This document shows positions 6,928 to 29,092 of a DNA stretch of 29,092 bases, piece by piece. The position numbers and the translations under genes were made by a program. How positions within the stretch are numbered: position 1 is the first letter of the stretch; each line of letters begins with the position of its first letter. The notes below the pieces were generated by a model that was given only the letters and a program-made list of their open reading frames with translations, searched no databases and was not told the origin of the DNA. Origin of the DNA: a virus (lineage: Duplodnaviria; Caudoviricetes); the IMG/VR virus record IMGVR_UViG_3300006851_000019, positions 1-29,092 of that record. The stretch is one strand, 5' to 3'.

Positions 6928-7815
6928 ATGCCAACATCAAATAATAATCAAGCAGCACGTAGTTATCAAAAACAATTTAGACAATTATTACAAGCAGTCT
7001 TCCGTACGCAAGCATATTTCCGCGATTTTTTCGGAGGTAATATTGAAGCTCTAGACGGCGTTCAACATAATGAAACAGCTTTTTATGTTAAAACGTCCGA
7101 TATTCCAGTCGTTGTAGGTACTGAATATAACAAAGATACTAACGTCGGGTTTGGTACAGGGACGTCTAATAGCACAAGATTCGGTCCACGAACAGAGATT
7201 ATCTATACAGACACACCAGTTCCTTACACCTGGGAGTGGGTTTATCATGAGGGAATTGACCGACACACTGTAAATAACGATATGCAATCAGCGATTGCTG
7301 ATCGTTTAGATCTGCAGGCTCAGGCTAAAATAAAGCAATTTAATACGCAACATAGTCAGTTTATTTCTAGTGTTGCTGGACATGAAGCGACTGTAGAAGG
7401 ATATAACGAAGATGCTATTCTTGCATTATTTAATGAGCTCTCTAACTACTATGTAAACATCGAGGCGGTTGGAACTAAAGCAGCTAAAGTTACACCTGAA
7501 CTCTATAACGCTATCGTCGATCATCCACTTACGACGAGCGCTAAAAGTTCATCGGCAAACATTGATCAAAATAACATCTTGAACTTCAAAGGTTTCCAAA
7601 TTGAAGAAATCCCTGAATCAATGCTTCAAGAGGGCGATGTTGCTTACACGTATATTACAGGTGTTGGCAAAGCATTTACCGGCATTAATACAGCACGTAC
7701 TATTGAATCAGAGGACTTTGACGGCGTGGCGCTTCAAGGCGCTGGTAAAGCTGGGGAGTTTATACTTGATGACAACAAAAAGGCTGTAGCGAAGGTGACT
7801 TTATCGGGGGAGTAA
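6928..7815 (+). CDS. Major capsid protein
   Basis: Follows the scaffold, 295 aa; ARTIESEDFDGVALQGAGKAG motif; ends LSGE*. Confidence 0.9.
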   Translation: MPTSNNNQAARSYQKQFRQLLQAVFRTQAYFRDFFGGNIEALDGVQHNETAFYVKTSDIPVVVGTEYNKDTNVGFGTGTSNSTRFGPRTEIIYTDTPVPYTWEWVYHEGIDRHTVNNDMQSAIADRLDLQAQAKIKQFNTQHSQFISSVAGHEATVEGYNEDAILALFNELSNYYVNIEAVGTKAAKVTPELYNAIVDHPLTTSAKSSSANIDQNNILNFKGFQIEEIPESMLQEGDVAYTYITGVGKAFTGINTARTIESEDFDGVALQGAGKAGEFILDDNKKAVAKVTLSGE

Positions 7816-7877
7816 TAAACCCCGAAATTGACAATGTCACGCCAACGACTGACGGGGCAGTCATTAATTTAAGATAG
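7804..7877 (+). other. Putative programmed -1 frameshift site (TCG GGG GAG TAA) giving a capsid with C-terminal extension GVINPEIDNVTPTTDGAVINLR
   Basis: -1 frame open 7806-7877; homologous element at the tail-tube gene end; stop overlaps the SD of the next gene. Confidence 0.75.
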
Positions 7878-7887
7878 GAGGGCTTCA

Positions 7888-8643
7888 ATGTTTAGAATCT
7901 ACAAAGGTGATGAAGTTGTTGTAGAGGGTGAAAGCCCTCTTAATATCACCGGATTAGAACCGAATACAGCAGTATCGGCAGGTGAATATGAGGCGGTAAG
8001 GGTTGAGGATGACAGGGAGTCTGAAAGAGTGGATATCCCTGCATTCACCACGTTGCCGATTGAGGTAACAGGCGTGTCTGTAAACCCAACAAGCTTATCA
8101 CTAGACACGGGAGACACAGGAAACCTAACAGCAACCATTTCTCCATCCAATGCTACAAATCAAGGTGTATCGTGGCAGTCTAGCAATACAGATGTAGCCA
8201 CAGTTAACGATGGCGTTGTGACTGCTGTTAGTGCAGGGAGCGCTACAATCACCGTTACAACCAACGACGGAGGACACACGGCAACTTGTGAGGTAACTGT
8301 AACGGATCCAGTGATTAATGTGACGGGAGTCGCTCTATCGCCGCAAACGTCCAGTGCAGAGGCAGGGACAGCAGGGAATAGACAACTAACCGCGACTGTT
8401 TCGCCAGCTGATGCCACAAATAGCGGTGTGTCTTATTCGATCGCACCAAATACAAGCGGTTTATCTGTCAGCGCCAGCGGATTAATTGAATGGACCGCAG
8501 ATGTGCCTGCAGGTACTTATACAACAACTGTGACCACAGACGACGGTGGTCACACGGATACGCATGTATTAACATTAACCGAACCAGAGCCAGAGGAACC
8601 AGAAGACCCTGAAGATCCAACTGATCCAGAAGAGGGTGATTAA
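7888..8643 (+). CDS. Virion decoration protein: N-terminally incomplete FN3-like domain, two Ig-like (Big_2-type) domains and an acidic Pro-Glu tail
   Basis: ITGLEPNT....Y FN3 signature; VTGVSV.P..L.L..G....LTATI.P.NATN..V.W.SSN..VATV..G.VTAV.AG.ATITVTT.DG is a Big_2 pattern. Confidence 0.88.
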   Translation: MFRIYKGDEVVVEGESPLNITGLEPNTAVSAGEYEAVRVEDDRESERVDIPAFTTLPIEVTGVSVNPTSLSLDTGDTGNLTATISPSNATNQGVSWQSSNTDVATVNDGVVTAVSAGSATITVTTNDGGHTATCEVTVTDPVINVTGVALSPQTSSAEAGTAGNRQLTATVSPADATNSGVSYSIAPNTSGLSVSASGLIEWTADVPAGTYTTTVTTDDGGHTDTHVLTLTEPEPEEPEDPEDPTDPEEGD

Positions 8644-9038
8644 TGGTGGTTTATCTAACCTATGAGGAATTCAAAGAGTTGTCTCATTCCGATATTGATG
8701 AATCGACGTTCAATAGCTTAATTAAAAAAGCTAGTGCGGTTTTAAATAACATCACTAGCTATTTTTATGTCAAAAATGACATTGCCAAAGATAATGAATG
8801 GCGTGTGAATCAATTTAAACAAGCCTTATGTGCTCAAATTGAATACTTTCATGAATTAGGTGCTTCTACCTTTGAGGGCATTAATAAAGCTCCTCAGTCA
8901 TTCAGCGCAGGTCGTACAACGGTTACTAATGCTAGTCGCTCAAGCGGCGAAGGAGAAAATAAGTCTCTCGTGGCAGAGGATGTTTATATCTACTTGGAAG
9001 GGACTGGCTTACTCTATTCAGCCGTGAGCGTATGGTAA
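8643..9038 (+). CDS. Head-tail adaptor protein
   Basis: YLTYEEF start, FKQALCAQIEY, L.GTGLLY end; synteny. Confidence 0.8.
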   Translation: MVVYLTYEEFKELSHSDIDESTFNSLIKKASAVLNNITSYFYVKNDIAKDNEWRVNQFKQALCAQIEYFHELGASTFEGINKAPQSFSAGRTTVTNASRSSGEGENKSLVAEDVYIYLEGTGLLYSAVSVW

Positions 9039-9373
9039 TGACTAAAGTGCCTGCTGAATTCTGTATTGACAGCTTCGAGTACAAGGAGTATCTAGGTGAG
9101 AATAATTGGAGTGAGCCGGAATACGCCGACCCGGTAACTATTCGGAATTGCCGAATAGATCGCGGTTCAGAATACACGTCAACCACAGCAGGAAAACAGT
9201 TGCTTTGGAACGCGGTTATCTTTTGCTATGAAGGTATTACCACGCCTATCCCTAATTTTACAACGCAATCTATCCTCACTTTTGACGGTGTGGACCATGT
9301 AGTTACAAAAGTTATCCCGATCTATGAAGCGTATGAGAAAAATCTCTACTCCTATGAATTGGAGGTGGTGTGA
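9032..9373 (+). CDS. Head-tail joining / head-closure ('minor capsid') protein
   Basis: Synteny, size, C-terminal SYELEVV. Confidence 0.75.
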   Translation: MVMTKVPAEFCIDSFEYKEYLGENNWSEPEYADPVTIRNCRIDRGSEYTSTTAGKQLLWNAVIFCYEGITTPIPNFTTQSILTFDGVDHVVTKVIPIYEAYEKNLYSYELEVV

Positions 9374-9702
9374 TGGTGCAAGTGTCGATTGATCTCAATA
9401 GAGCAAAAGTAAAGATGTCACAACAGAGCGTACAGCGCGGCAGGTATGCCCTTGCTAACCAAGCTATGGCGGACATGAACCAGTTTGTACCGATGGACGA
9501 GGGAACTCTTAGGCAGACGGCTTCGGTTGATGTAACAGGTGAAGCAATCAGCTACAACACCCCTTATGCCCGTAGATTGTTCTACATGCCGATGTACAAT
9601 TACACCACACCGGGAACAGGTCCACGTTGGGATATGAAAGCTAAACGGATATTTATGAGTGATTGGATAAGGGCGTTCACAAAGGGGGCTGATTGGAATT
9701 GA
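9373..9702 (+). CDS. 'Minor capsid' / tail completion protein (HK97 gp10-like position)
   Basis: FVP.DEG.LR, YNTPYARRLFY, TTPGTGPRWD motifs. Confidence 0.8.
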   Translation: MVQVSIDLNRAKVKMSQQSVQRGRYALANQAMADMNQFVPMDEGTLRQTASVDVTGEAISYNTPYARRLFYMPMYNYTTPGTGPRWDMKAKRIFMSDWIRAFTKGADWN

Positions 9703-10093
9703 TTTCATTGAAAGGCTAACTGAAAGGGTAAACGATATACCAAATCTTCCTATCGATTGTAAGATGGGCTATCTTGGTATAGATGAGTCGTTCGTTGTTT
9801 ATCCGTTACCAGGCAGTCGAACGGTTTCAGAATTCATGGATGGAACGAAAGAGCAACACTTAAACTTCGAATTCGCAATGAAGTCACAGCTTCAAAGTAA
9901 AATTCATACTACTTTGTGGCTCGTTCAGAACGAATTAGACGAGTTGGAAGAGTTAGAAAGTCATGACGGTAGCTTTGAATTCGAGGAATTAATCATAACG
10001 AACAAGCCTTTTATCAATCAAATTGATGATCAAGGTTGGTTCGTTTTTTTGTTGGATATTCAAGCCAATATAACAGTTTTCAAGGAGGAATAG
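9698..10093 (+). CDS. Tail terminator / 'minor capsid' protein, probably starting at a non-canonical ATT
   Basis: Frame open from 9671 with no ATG/GTG/TTG until 9764; SD AAAGGGGG 9681-9688 then ATT GAT TTC ATT GAA AGG; YPLPGSR....MDG motif. Confidence 0.75.
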   Translation: MDFIERLTERVNDIPNLPIDCKMGYLGIDESFVVYPLPGSRTVSEFMDGTKEQHLNFEFAMKSQLQSKIHTTLWLVQNELDELEELESHDGSFEFEELIITNKPFINQIDDQGWFVFLLDIQANITVFKEE

Positions 10094-10097
10094 AAAA

Positions 10098-10550
10098 ATG
10101 GCTAGATTAAAAAACGCTGAGCGTAAACACTATGTGCAAGCATACGAACCAGGACAGGATGAGCCGGGGGAAGAGTGGTTTGAATTAGCTCACCTTATTT
10201 CTACCATCGGCGACGATACTCAGGAAGAGACAGAGGACGAAGCTTTCTATGATGGGGATGGTACGCCAGAAACGACTGTTACATCTGTTGCTCAAGCCTA
10301 CACACCAGAGGGTTACTATGACCCAGAGGATGAAGCGCAGGAGTTGATTGCAAGTTTGAAATTTAAAACAGGCGATGGACGTAAGATTTGGCACCGCGTT
10401 GTTCGTTCTGATGGCAAGAAGGAATGGGTAGGTGTGGCAACAGTGACAGCGATTGTTGCAGGGGCAGGAGACGCAAGCGCTTATGAGACGTTTAGCTGTA
10501 ACATTCGTTTTGATCAAATCCCAGAGGAGACTGATTTATCGGGGGAGTAA
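10098..10550 (+). CDS. Major tail (tube) protein
   Basis: YDGDGTPETTV motif, G.YD.ED.AQ, synteny; ends LSGE*. Confidence 0.9.
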   Translation: MARLKNAERKHYVQAYEPGQDEPGEEWFELAHLISTIGDDTQEETEDEAFYDGDGTPETTVTSVAQAYTPEGYYDPEDEAQELIASLKFKTGDGRKIWHRVVRSDGKKEWVGVATVTAIVAGAGDASAYETFSCNIRFDQIPEETDLSGE

Positions 10551-10612
10551 TAGCCCCGGTGGTTGACAATGTATCTCCCACAACAAATGGGGCGATTGTG
10601 ACACTAGAATAA
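10539..10612 (+). other. Putative programmed -1 frameshift site (TCG GGG GAG TAA) giving a tail tube with extension GVIAPVVDNVSPTTNGAIVTLE
   Basis: -1 frame open 10541-10612; 13/22 identical to the capsid extension; terminator begins at the -1 stop. Confidence 0.75.
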
Positions 10613-10636
10613 GAGGGGTTTATACCCCTCTATTTT
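10612..10636 (+). terminator. Intrinsic terminator after the extended tail-tube frame
   Basis: AGAGGGGT-TTAT-ACCCCTCT followed by ATTTT. Confidence 0.7.
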
Positions 10637-10655: not shown

Positions 10656-11108
10656 ATGGTAAAAGTTGATATACAGCGAACAGGCTTTCCCGTGACGATT
10701 GGAACACTAGAATTGTGGTTCGATAGCTCAATCGAGAACCTAAGACGCTTCTTCAATGTTGATGAAATAGCGCAGGAGAGATTAAAAGAAGCACAGGAAA
10801 AAGCGAAACATATTCATTTTCCATTGGAAGTAAATGTTGAAACTATCGACAACATCGACGTAAAAACAGTAGACGCTGCCTTTGATGTGAATAAGGAATT
10901 TATAGCTGCACAGTACGATATCATTTTTGGTGATGGGACTTTCAAAAAGATTTACCAGCAATACCCGGACATTCTAGCACTAGAACAGGCGTTAGACCCA
11001 CTTGGCGCTGCCATTGCTGAGCGTATCGGAGAAATGGAAGAAGAGCGAACAGAAAAGATTGAAGCGAAGAAGAATGAATACTTGAAGAAAAAAGCACAGA
11101 AAAAGTAG
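10656..11108 (+). CDS. Tail assembly chaperone
   Basis: Follows the tail tube; IFGDGTFKKIY motif. Confidence 0.75.
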   Translation: MVKVDIQRTGFPVTIGTLELWFDSSIENLRRFFNVDEIAQERLKEAQEKAKHIHFPLEVNVETIDNIDVKTVDAAFDVNKEFIAAQYDIIFGDGTFKKIYQQYPDILALEQALDPLGAAIAERIGEMEEERTEKIEAKKNEYLKKKAQKK

Positions 11109-11116
11109 GTGATTAA

Positions 11117-11686
11117 ATGCGTCTCAACGACCCTTTAGTCACTTCTTTTTCATATGACGGCAAAGAATATGAAATCGATTTAGCTTTCGATAATGTACTC
11201 GATGTGTTCGATGTTCTTGACGATGAGACGCTAAGAGGATACGAAAAGGCTGAAATATGTCTTTCTCTGTTAGTAGGAGAAACATTTACGGGACTTGAAG
11301 CCGTCGAAATGTGGAATTATGTTTACGAAAAGTACATTAAAATTGAAAGTAAGAAGCCGATTGAATATGACTTAAAAGGAAATCCTATGCCCGTTCAAGA
11401 GGACGAGGAAACGGAGCGCTTCATTGATTTTGAGCAAGACGCTGAACATATCTACGCTTCATTCCGCCAGGCCTACGGAATGAATCTGTATGAACAGCAA
11501 GGAAAGCTTTCATGGAAAGAATTCCAAGCTTTGTTGAGTGGTTTGCCAAGCGATACGATTATGCAACGAGTTATTCAAATTCGATTGTGGAAGCCGTCAA
11601 AAGGTGATACAGCCGAATACAGAGAAAATATGCGGAAGCTACAGAAAATTTATGCGTTAAACGACATGGAAGATACCCCCGAGTAA
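11117..11686 (+). CDS. Gp15-family tail assembly protein
   Basis: Y.IDLAFDNVL, DFEQDA..IYASF.QAYG.NL, L.W.EF.ALL.GLP.DT....IQIR. Confidence 0.85.
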   Translation: MRLNDPLVTSFSYDGKEYEIDLAFDNVLDVFDVLDDETLRGYEKAEICLSLLVGETFTGLEAVEMWNYVYEKYIKIESKKPIEYDLKGNPMPVQEDEETERFIDFEQDAEHIYASFRQAYGMNLYEQQGKLSWKEFQALLSGLPSDTIMQRVIQIRLWKPSKGDTAEYRENMRKLQKIYALNDMEDTPE

Positions 11687-11728
11687 TGGTAAAATTTACT
11701 TACTACTTATGGTTATGGGGGGATTGTG

Positions 11729-12211
11729 ATGAAAAAGGGACTGATTTTACTTTTTAGTGTGCTGTTCTTGGTTGGTTGTGGTGACACTGATATCGAAAGT
11801 GAAACAGGAGTAGCGGAGACTGAAGAGGAAGAAAAGAGAGAGGAGATGTTAGAAACGGAAGTAATGTTGTATCTTTCAAAAATGACAAATAACTATTCCT
11901 CCGCATTTATAGCAACTACCTCAATAGATGAAAAGAACGAATATCTTACTAAAGCAATAACTGATATAAATTTAGCGGTTCTCGAAATAGAAGATGAGTT
12001 CGAAGAAGGCGCACCACCAACAAAAGAATTATTCGAATTAGCGGAGTTACTAAAAATTGCCATAGAGTCAGAAATAGCGGGTGACAATGAAAATGCGCAC
12101 AAGTACTCACATGAGGCAGGTGCAATAATAGGAGATTTATCCAGAGAATATTTAGATGGAGAGTTGCCGACAGCTCTTAAAATTATGACAGGTTTAGATG
12201 ACGCAAATTAA
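11729..12211 (+). CDS. Lipoprotein moron of unknown function
   Basis: MKK + hydrophobic stretch + lipobox LVGC; extended -10 TGGTAAAAT at 11687-11695; own terminator. Confidence 0.85.
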   Translation: MKKGLILLFSVLFLVGCGDTDIESETGVAETEEEEKREEMLETEVMLYLSKMTNNYSSAFIATTSIDEKNEYLTKAITDINLAVLEIEDEFEEGAPPTKELFELAELLKIAIESEIAGDNENAHKYSHEAGAIIGDLSREYLDGELPTALKIMTGLDDAN

Positions 12212-24359: not shown

Positions 24360-26024
24360 GTGAAATATCTTAGGTACATAGTGTCGCTTGCTATCATATT
24401 TTCTCTATTTGTACCAAGCGCACTGGCAGAGAATGCTTTTTCAGACGTAAATGATGATTTTTGGGCAAAGGATGAAATTGAGTATTTAGCAGACGAGGGG
24501 ATTATAGGCGGTTATGATGACGGGACGTTTAATCCGAATGCGCCTGTAACTCGAAGTCAAGCAGCAATCATGCTTGTGCGTGCATTGGACTTAGAAGCCG
24601 ATAATCGCCCTGCAGCAGACTTCGCAGATATTAGCGACGACTATCATGCGTATGATGTAGTTGCTACTGTCCAGGACGAGGGAATTATAACAGGACGAGA
24701 CGGGCGGTTTATGCCGAATGACACGCTAACACGCGGTCAAATGGCTGCTGTCTTAAACCGTTCATTTGATTTTGAAGAAGGAAATGTTAGCTTTTCTGAT
24801 GTAAGTCAAGATTCTACATTTTATCAAGACATTGCGAATATTGCAGAAGCTAATATAACTACAGGATATAGTGAAGATAATACATTTAGACCAAACAATG
24901 ACACAACACGCGCTCAGTTTTCTGTATTTTTGGCCCGTGTTCTCGACGACTCATTTCGCGTATCTGATGATGAAGAAGACAACGGTGATGATGAAACTGC
25001 ATATCCTACAGTAAGCATGGAAGCTCACTTTTTAGATGTAGGACAAGGTGACGCTACACTTATCGTCAACAATCAAGGCGGTGTAATGCTTGTAGACGCG
25101 GGTACTCGCTCAGCAGGAGAAAAGGTTGTGGCGTATTTAAAAGAAGCCGGAATTGACACAATTGATAAGCTAGTTGCGACACACGCACACGCGGATCATA
25201 TCGGTGGAATGGTAGAAGTTATGCAGAATTTTGAAATTGGAGAAGTCATTGATAGCGGTATTCCTCATACATCTCAGACATACATAGAATATTTGGAATA
25301 CATTGATGACAACGACATTCCATTTACTGTTGCTGAGCCCGGAGATAAGGTTGACTTAGGTAGCGGAGTAGACATTGCTGTAGTTAATAGCGGGCAAGAA
25401 GGCGACAGTTTGAATAATGCTTCCGTATCTCTTCATATAGAGTATCAGGACACTAGCCTGCTCTTAACTGGTGACGCGGAAGAAGCAGCAGAGCGACGTA
25501 TTGTCAACAACTTCAATGTAGAAGCGGACGTGTTAAAAGTCGGTCATCACAGCTCAAATACAAGCTCTAATGACTTTTTCCTCGACGCTGTACAGCCGGA
25601 CCATGCAGTATTTTCATATGGAGAAGGTAACCAATACGGCCATCCGCATGATGAAGTGATTGATCGTTTACAGAATAGAGGAGCGGACATCTATTCCACT
25701 GCAGAACAAGGAAATATCGTGGCTAATTTCCATGCGGGTAACGTATCGTTTTATACATCCCCATGGGACATTGATGTAACGCCTGAACCAGAACCAGAGC
25801 CTACTCCTGAACCACAACCGGAGCCAAGCCCGGGATTAATCAATATTAATACAGCGAATTATGAGGAGCTGCAGGAGATAACGGGCGTTGGTCCTGTTAT
25901 TGCAGAACGTATCATCGAATACCGTAACACACATGGTGGCTTTGATAGCATTGAGGAGATCATGCAAGTGAGCGGTATCGCAGAAGGACGCTTTTCTGAC
26001 ATGAGGGATGAAATCACTGTATAG
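24360..26024 (+). CDS. Secreted S-layer-anchored protein: signal peptide, 3 SLH domains, ComEC-like metallo-beta-lactamase domain, Pro-Glu linker, ComEA-like helix-hairpin-helix
   Basis: FSDV...WA, F.PN...TR.Q SLH motifs; HFLDVGQGDA, THAHADHIGG, LLTGDAE, VGHH, N.YGHP; ININTA..EEL..I.GVG...A..I..YR...GGF..IEE...V.GI. Confidence 0.92.
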   Translation: MKYLRYIVSLAIIFSLFVPSALAENAFSDVNDDFWAKDEIEYLADEGIIGGYDDGTFNPNAPVTRSQAAIMLVRALDLEADNRPAADFADISDDYHAYDVVATVQDEGIITGRDGRFMPNDTLTRGQMAAVLNRSFDFEEGNVSFSDVSQDSTFYQDIANIAEANITTGYSEDNTFRPNNDTTRAQFSVFLARVLDDSFRVSDDEEDNGDDETAYPTVSMEAHFLDVGQGDATLIVNNQGGVMLVDAGTRSAGEKVVAYLKEAGIDTIDKLVATHAHADHIGGMVEVMQNFEIGEVIDSGIPHTSQTYIEYLEYIDDNDIPFTVAEPGDKVDLGSGVDIAVVNSGQEGDSLNNASVSLHIEYQDTSLLLTGDAEEAAERRIVNNFNVEADVLKVGHHSSNTSSNDFFLDAVQPDHAVFSYGEGNQYGHPHDEVIDRLQNRGADIYSTAEQGNIVANFHAGNVSFYTSPWDIDVTPEPEPEPTPEPQPEPSPGLININTANYEELQEITGVGPVIAERIIEYRNTHGGFDSIEEIMQVSGIAEGRFSDMRDEITV

Positions 26025-26034
26025 GAGTGATTGT

Positions 26035-26286
26035 TTGAAAAAGTACACAGTAGACAGATTTGAAGGAGAATTTGCTGTTCTCCTTCTTTCTTCTGATGAG
26101 TCGGTGCAAAAGGACGTACCGAAAGATCAATTACCGAACGACGTTAAAGAAGGCGACATTATAGAAGTTTCATTTAATGTAGATGGAACTGTTAAAGAGG
26201 CAATGATAAAAAGAGAAGAAACAATTAGTCGTAAAGAAAAGGCTCAGTCTTTGTTGGAGAAGTTGAAAAGTAAGAATAAAAAATGA
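26035..26286 (+). CDS. DUF3006-like protein
   Basis: SD AGGAG then TTG 26035; VDRFEG.FAVL...LP...KEGDII motif; usual neighbour of ComEC-like MBL genes. Confidence 0.8.
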   Translation: MKKYTVDRFEGEFAVLLLSSDESVQKDVPKDQLPNDVKEGDIIEVSFNVDGTVKEAMIKREETISRKEKAQSLLEKLKSKNKK

Positions 26287-28434: not shown

Positions 28435-28644
28435 GTGAGTAGAAAAACAAATAAAACCCCACACCTATACAGGAAAAAACCTGTTGTTGTTGAGGCGTAT
28501 CGTGTAGATGAAGAGCAAAAAATAGAAACCCTAGAAGGAACAATGACCGCAGCCCCGGGCGATTGGATTGTTAAAGGTGTTAACGGTGAAAGATACCCTG
28601 TAAAGCCTGATATTTTTGAAAAAACTTATGAAAAAGCAGACTAA
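28435..28644 (+). CDS. PGDYG-like small phage protein (69 aa)
   Basis: [10 protein letters not shown]...[30 protein letters not shown]; SD GGGGAGG. Confidence 0.85.
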
Positions 28645-29042
28645 GCTTCATTGATTGCCTTCTCAATTGAAGGTTTGGTGAAACTTTTCGCCCATGAGGC
28701 TCCTTTCCCTAATAAGTTAGATGGACTTGTGTTTGAGTTTTTTATTTTTACTGCAACAAACTTCAACTCTAACTCGGCAGCTTTATCAATTTCCCATGTG
28801 CACCAACTGCTTTTGTATGTTTCTTCACCGATTAAAACTATAATTTTATCGCAGGTCCCTAGCCTCCTAGATATTGCTCTTTTAATAGCGATTGGATTGT
28901 CTGAGTTGACGGATACATCTGTTGAACCATCTTCGAAGGAAATAGAATTAAAGTGGTCAGCATCGTTTTCAGACCAAGCATGTAATAAATTTTTATAATT
29001 TCGATCGTTGTCATAGTCATAACTAATAAATACCTTCTCCAT
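28641..29042 (-). CDS. Thoeris ThsB-like TIR-domain protein (DUF1863/MTH538 type, 133 aa)
   Basis: VFISYD..D, IVLIG..T..S.W..WEI with the catalytic Glu; SD AAGGAGGG before ATG 29042. Confidence 0.9.
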
Positions 29043-29047
29043 ATTTA

Positions 29048-29092
29048 TCAACCCTCCTTTTCCTTTCGATGCATGCTTGCCCAATTTACATT
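29048..29092 (-). CDS. 3' end of an upstream gene (…NVNWASMHRKEKEG*), possibly a SLATT/DUF4231 effector; cut by the window edge
   Basis: Open frame to the edge, stop 5 nt before the TIR start; N.NW resembles the C-terminus I recall for DUF4231 proteins; only 14 residues visible. Confidence 0.35.
   Translation of the reverse strand, partial: NVNWASMHRKEKEG

Follow-up and report, generated by a model that had tools for sequence, protein, structure and literature searches.

Frameshifting at the 3' end of both the major capsid and the major tail gene has been described in the Listeria phages A118, A500 and PSA, where it adds Ig-like (immunoglobulin-like) extensions, and also in Lactobacillus phage A2 (PMC5009743). 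In SPP1, a frameshift puts an FN3 domain on one in four tube subunits (gp17.1*) and is dispensable for infection (PMC8718954). A different arrangement was found in phage Tuc2009, whose crystal structure (PDB 5E7T) shows a 25-residue C-terminal hairpin of BppU completing the sheet of domain 2 of BppA; in this composite, a 57-residue beta-sandwich of the accessory protein is completed and resembles a titin domain (PMC4742702). These two known tricks, recoded extension and hairpin complementation, appear to be combined in one system in the virus record IMGVR_UViG_3300006851_000019 (IMG/VR; Duplodnaviria, Caudoviricetes), of which positions 1 to 29,092 were analysed and are called the window below. 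At the ends of its capsid and tail-tube genes, some ribosomes would slip back one base and thereby add a 22-residue tag; this tag would form a two-strand hairpin equivalent to the first two strands of an FN3 domain; and the hairpin would complete a five-strand half-FN3, here termed the acceptor, at the start of an Ig-bearing protein encoded directly after the capsid gene. One Ig-bearing protein would thus anchor on both head and tail, and the frequency of the slip would probably set the number of decorated sites. This explanation as a whole, which draws on the observed sequences, frames, conservation, co-occurrence and fused relatives, is given a probability of roughly 0.8.

The proposed system would resemble Tuc2009 in that a separate half-domain is completed by the C-terminal hairpin of a structural protein, and BppA is the top fold match of the window's acceptor. 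The differences are that the BppU hairpin is in frame and on a baseplate protein, whereas in the window it would be reached by a slip and carried by capsid and tube, that the half-domain of BppA is C-terminal to a sugar-binding module, whereas the window's is N-terminal to Ig-like Big_2 domains, and that the window's tag has no sequence match to BppU. With A118, A500 and PSA, the window would share the slip at the 3' ends of the two genes; it differs in that a 22-residue piece would be added, the remainder being a separate gene. With SPP1, it would share an FN3-type part added by frameshift to a fraction of the tube subunits; it differs in that gp17.1* carries a whole FN3 in one chain and on the tail only, for which one locus among the window phage's relatives, L038, offers the whole-FN3 counterpart. 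As in other frameshift extensions, a putative slip site lies at the 3' end of a capsid or tail gene and is followed by an open alternative frame under selection, although the site itself is non-canonical. The decoration proteins described in a study of the phage 812 neck were considered as a counterpart and set aside; they are encoded by other genes.

The capsid and tail-tube genes both end in Leu-Ser-Gly-Glu-stop within an identical 18 nt, the only exact repeat of at least 17 nt in the window (Table 1). In the -1 frame, the capsid site reads GVINPEIDNVTPTTDGAVINLR up to a stop at 7875-7877, which overlaps the next Shine-Dalgarno-like site, and the tail site reads GVIAPVVDNVSPTTNGAIVTLE up to a stop at 10610-10612, which touches the terminator stem. 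The two peptides are identical at 13 of 22 positions, with seven synonymous codon pairs exactly as named in the initial annotation. The latter had spoken of the same 22-residue tag on both proteins; the length of 22 and the identity count are borne out, but the tags are homologous rather than identical, and the net gain is 21 residues (by computation, the capsid protein becomes about 2.2 kDa and the tube protein 2.0-2.1 kDa heavier). Past the shared 18-mer, the mismatches are distributed 8/4/12 over codon positions 1/2/3 of the -1 frame, which is the only stop-free frame and has a BLOSUM score of 61 versus 1 and 16 for the other two, stop-containing frames. Random placement of the same 24 substitutions attained the BLOSUM score of the real pair in 1 of 100,000 trials and its identity in 0.3%. 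The selection on the -1-frame peptide that had been proposed is therefore upheld by the codon-position pattern, the substitution test and the comparison with relatives; together with a programmed slip, it is well supported by these comparisons of sequence, and the -1 slip at the capsid and tail sites of the window phage is very probably real. The junction residue may be Glu instead of Gly if the slip follows the decoding of GAG; without Met, the tagged forms would have masses of 34,602 (Gly) or 34,674 (Glu) for the capsid and 18,577 or 18,649 for the tube. Neither tag has a PHROG match, and each ends in a stop after 22 residues, so no whole Ig or FN3 domain is added. The earlier view that only a short shared peptide is added is supported as to the addition; the peptide, in our reading, most likely does not stand alone, and the rest of the FN3 likely comes from the next gene, 7888-8643, on which the initial annotation is silent.

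Contigs of sequencing run X1 span both slip sites without gaps, but X1 is possibly the source of the window and so is not independent. In run X3, a relative's contig compared with window 10538-10610 lacks exactly the tail tag cassette and has 15 other letters instead, while another contig connects 7868 directly with 8620, skipping the acceptor gene.

The sites through which the tag is reached differ among relatives. The 53 non-redundant tag sites comprise 43 called -1, 5 called +1 and 5 in frame, one of the five +1 calls (the L014 capsid) being a mis-call due to an internal frame break in the record; such breaks, through error or decay, occur in the records of the L014 and L030 capsids and of the L015 acceptor start. 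Besides the window's G GGG GAG, the site types are, among others, canonical G GGA AAN, A runs and CCC-stop. A canonical heptamer is present in 12 of the 41 aligned -1 sites, and 31 of the 43 -1 sites use GGG as the Gly codon of the tag, versus a background of 11%. Pairable C4 and G4 runs were found in 24 of 29 non-canonical sites versus 0 of 12 canonical ones. This observation suggests that a 3' stem assists the weak slip sites, a pattern that kinship could also produce. The covariation between the C4 and G4 runs is weak (equalled in 9 of 500 shuffles), an RNAalifold consensus fold of 41 -1 sites (all 43 except L013 and L047) contained no pairs, single folds of both window sites gave z between -1.5 and 0.15, and the signal for an upstream Shine-Dalgarno stimulator was slight and confined to the vicinity of the site. 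That ribosomes read through the capsid stop into the following open reading frame was rejected: the frame is the same, but three stops intervene.

The first 58 residues of the protein encoded by 7888-8643 match no Pfam family, and its two Big_2 stretches begin from residue 59. A profile built from 20 acceptor domains matches fibronectin FN3 repeats in their C-terminal part (best E 0.0012) as well as residues 230-283 of Tuc2009 BppA (5e7t_B), the latter at an E of only 0.043. The Foldseek search with the acceptor model placed the same chain, in BppA domain 2, at rank 1 (TM 0.69, root-mean-square deviation 2.2, probability 1.00, E 0.13), followed mostly by FN3 domains. The Pfam family fn3 (PF00041) matches 3 of the 20 acceptors weakly (best E 0.004), below the Pfam cut-off for a whole one-chain domain; whole FN3 domains occur only in fusions and in L038. 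Searches of the PDB with a single acceptor sequence gave no match. Prediction of a complex between tag and acceptor scored 0.53, versus 0.05 for the best of three controls; this is a weak pass, with a partner pLDDT (predicted local distance difference test) of 71, and the runs agree in 98% of contacts. The mark for a pass is reached by 116 of 157 solved pairs and 2 of 215 mismatched pairs, a score at or below 0.60 being that of 18 of the solved pairs and of both mismatches, and domain halves tend to pass through likeness to solved structures. The acceptor model also matches a tail-tip protein of Bxb1 (PDB 9d93, chains Sa/Sb; TM 0.67), which is possibly another split case or a whole FN3.

A scan of 124 loci plus the window (125 sequences) in six frames found a stop-terminated tag in 109 of 109 loci with an acceptor versus 0 of 16 without one, the count of 109 being circular because the tag profile was trained on tags adjoining acceptors; reversed controls reached at most 14.2 bits. 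A second, held-out tag, which was not in the profile, was found in 21 of 30 non-redundant acceptor groups (90% identity). Of the 9 groups lacking it, five are represented by loci shorter than 8.2 kb, and in one other an in-frame tail tag was recognised by eye. The tag neighbours the acceptor in 30 of 30 groups, and the gaps between them in relatives measure 6-92 nt. Among the 14 loci related to the window through the capsid, 2 have an acceptor and tags, 10 have neither (2 of these being short), 1 has a weak match, and 1 is L038, in which a +1 shift at the capsid and another at the tail each open onto a whole fn3 domain (E 5e-11 and 2e-12). Three states therefore exist among close relatives: nothing, a whole FN3 and a split FN3.

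The tags sit behind unrelated capsids and tubes and are reached through different slip sites or in frame, as in phiEf11, SN8 and Kayvirus. The acceptor, which matches 486 phage records, is at the N-terminus with nothing preceding it in 127 of 150 cases among the matches listed and internal in 13. Several of the internal cases are one-frame fusions, in which a tag-like stretch stands directly ahead of the acceptor, an order that agrees with the tag supplying the first strands; such fusions include P0111, P0118, P0191, P0212 and P0163; the model of P0118 has two domains matching tandem FN3 at an E of about 1e-7, its alignment having included window fragments. Other proteins have an acceptor at the start and a tag at the end, namely TmpH of Kayvirus, P0002 (90% identical to the window's acceptor) and several proteins of 85-92 amino acids. 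The Kayvirus trio (L042:3337-4746) consists of ORF95 with an in-frame tag, TmpH with acceptor, Ig and tag, and TmpI with an acceptor. The cargo behind acceptors varies between Big_2, PF05345, PF07501 and Thr-rich stretches. In L093:7989-8400 and L094:7989-8410, two tandem acceptor genes are preceded by an in-frame tag, and the capsid carries a -1 tag. A broader proposal, which we favour only slightly over its negation, is that phages of Firmicutes share a portable plug-and-socket display, in which a recoded hairpin of about 20 residues on unrelated capsids or tubes would capture any protein that starts with a half-FN3. A slip rate tuned by the 3' stem would set the occupancy, the cargo (Big_2, G5, other Ig, Thr-rich) would be freely swapped, and acceptors ending in their own tag, such as those of TmpH, P0002 and the proteins of 85-92 amino acids, would chain into pilus-like strings.

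Published data on virions of relatives bear on this. In matrix-assisted laser desorption/ionization spectra of Triavirus virions, a mass of 23,295 was assigned to the tail protein and 15,871 to a separate Ig protein, which is an acceptor, and peaks at 25,208 and 12,598 were listed without assignment (PMC5923470). In phage 47, which has an acceptor (profile E 1e-28), capsid and tail both carry +1 tags, and the +1-tagged tail protein computes to 25,206. The match would be to the phage 47 type, because the version of phage 3A would be 25,246, and none of 57 open reading frame starts (190-260 amino acids) falls within 15 Da of the peak. The 25,208 peak hence fits the tagged phage 47 tail protein, an assignment of our own from the published data. 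All three masses of the Kayvirus trio ORF95-TmpH-TmpI were seen in virions (PMC5923470). Phage phi12, which is 99.9% identical in this region, has capsid bands of 29.5 and 32.6 kDa, from both of which the N-terminal peptides are missing, and its acceptor gp38 is a major band (PMC8569155).

Several points weigh against the explanation as a whole. The G GGG GAG of the window is not a canonical X XXY YYZ heptamer, and a literature search found no phage precedent for it, the sole phage match being a ribosome binding site. Besides the circularity mentioned above, the scanned loci are redundant and related, and the counts ignore kinship. The profile and fold E-values for BppA are not significant alone; the tag profile gave chance matches only against PDB sequences, matching neither FN3 nor BppU, and no alignment with the FN3 of L038, to which the acceptor itself is weakly similar (E 0.0012, probability 19%). 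The weak pass of the complex may stem from a resemblance to 5E7T or to complete FN3 domains. As for the virions, the peak at 25,208 could come from a product of cleavage, a tagged capsid (predicted at about 32.3 kDa) is absent among the shared peaks listed in PMC5923470, the authors of the phi12 study attribute the second capsid band to a second cleavage site (PMC8569155), and the apparent shift of 3.1 kDa between the phi12 bands exceeds the predicted 1.9 kDa.

Other explanations start from the same observations. The tagged form might arise by transcriptional rather than ribosomal slippage, since there is a run of five G and one added base yields the same frame; however, five bases are short for polymerase slippage, the sites in relatives are in phase with the codons and belong to known ribosomal types (G GGA AAN, CCC-stop), and we regard this as the least probable alternative. 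Another possibility is that the tags are left over from the copying of a cassette and persist, untranslated, as signals in RNA or DNA. This would agree with the non-canonical slip site and with the strong GGG and CCC codon bias of the tags, which points to selection at the level of RNA; the codon-position pattern, the fixed length of the tag, the in-frame versions in phiEf11, SN8 and Kayvirus, and the match to the 25,208 mass make it very improbable.

If the tags are made, their function might still be independent of the acceptor, such as a contact at the surface or in head-tail assembly, with the acceptor binding elsewhere and folding alone or with itself. The acceptor alone was indeed modelled at a pLDDT of 94.5, and no known FN3 strand matches the tag in sequence, but the 16 acceptor-free loci carry no tag, natural fusions of tag and acceptor exist, L038 carries the whole-FN3 version, and the BppU/BppA precedent is solved; such a role is therefore improbable. 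Alternatively, the FN3 might be made as one chain if a second recoding step let ribosomes that have translated the capsid tag enter the acceptor frame. The constant adjacency of tag and acceptor would fit this, as would the production of a whole FN3 through a single slip in SPP1 and L038. This is hardly credible when the tag ends in a stop, the acceptor lies in another frame with its own start signal, gaps separate the two in relatives, a terminator and no acceptor comes after the tail tag, and acceptors of free mass were detected in virions (PMC5923470).

Docking of a separate acceptor on tagged capsid and tube would, if true, explain the virion attachment of a family misnamed 'major tail protein' (PHROG 341), whose 486 phage records comprise those of therapeutic Kayviruses and of enterococcal phages, among others. 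Members such as the Triavirus Ig-like protein, phi12 gp38 and Kayvirus TmpH and TmpI share the N-terminal domain of the window's protein and are found in virions; the difference lies in their annotation as major or minor tail proteins. It would also account for short unexplained frames after capsid and tube genes, give a new reading of unassigned virion bands and peaks, and provide a small natural tag-catcher pair for protein display on phage particles. By analogy with what is generally known of virion Ig-like domains (PMC8718954), the likely role would be to display such domains for weak, non-essential adhesion to the cell surface or matrix. A frameshifted hairpin is not described in the available portions of PMC7533335, PMC9692632, PMC6669499 and PMC6950010, and the combination of a recoded tag with a hairpin-completed acceptor was not found in a literature search, most subscription papers being outside its reach.

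Table 1. Positions of the capsid, tail and acceptor features in the window.
Feature	Position	Strand	Basis
Major capsid protein, 295 amino acids	6928..7815	+	phrog_840 major head protein, E 1e-123
18-mer copy 1, putative slip site G GGG GAG (7806-7812) and zero-frame stop	7800..7817	+	sequence; same site type in many relatives
Capsid tag, -1 frame, 22 codons and stop; predicted FN3 strands A-B	7809..7877	+	
Possible 3' stimulatory stem of capsid site, C4 run with G4 run, weakly supported	7820..7857	+	absent from RNAalifold result
Decoration protein, 251 amino acids: acceptor, two Big_2 Ig-like stretches, acidic tail	7888..8643	+	Pfam Big_2 E 4e-22; phrog_341 E 3e-67
Acceptor domain, N-terminal 58 amino acids, FN3 without first two strands	7888..8061	+	profile matches, model pLDDT 94.5, Foldseek
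Major tail (tube) protein, 150 amino acids	10098..10550 (stop codon 10548-10550)	+	phrog_820 major tail protein, E 3e-56
18-mer copy 2, putative slip site 10541-10547	10535..10552	+	sequence
Tail tag, -1 frame, 22 codons and stop	10544..10612	+	sequence comparison
Possible 3' stimulatory stem of tail site	10553..10593	+	in minimum free energy fold, z only -0.8
Intrinsic terminator-like hairpin	10612..10631	+	RNA fold, z -3.2

The gene content of the window (packaging, head, tail, lysis and an integrase end) is that of a temperate siphophage. Several of its head-tail genes are assigned to A118-type Pfam families, and the named relatives of its capsid, at 64-84% identity, are from Bacillaceae and Clostridia. 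Downstream of the tube gene, the first tail chaperone gene ends with a canonical-looking G AAA AAG directly before its stop (11099-11119). The gene after it is in the -1 frame, but a TAA directly precedes its ATG, and for this reason a lambda-type G-GT fusion is closed. Between the tail chaperones and the tape measure gene lies an acidic lipoprotein-like open reading frame (11726-12211) with 0 matches in Pfam and PADLOC. Between the lysis genes and the integrase (24360-26286), there are genes for a protein with SLH, metallo-beta-lactamase-fold and HhH parts and for a DUF3006 protein, which are likely surface nuclease cargo or host genes. Finally, a TIR-domain gene on the minus strand (28641-29084), which resembles ThsB of Thoeris, adjoins an M78 peptidase and the integrase; any partner would be beyond the end of the window.

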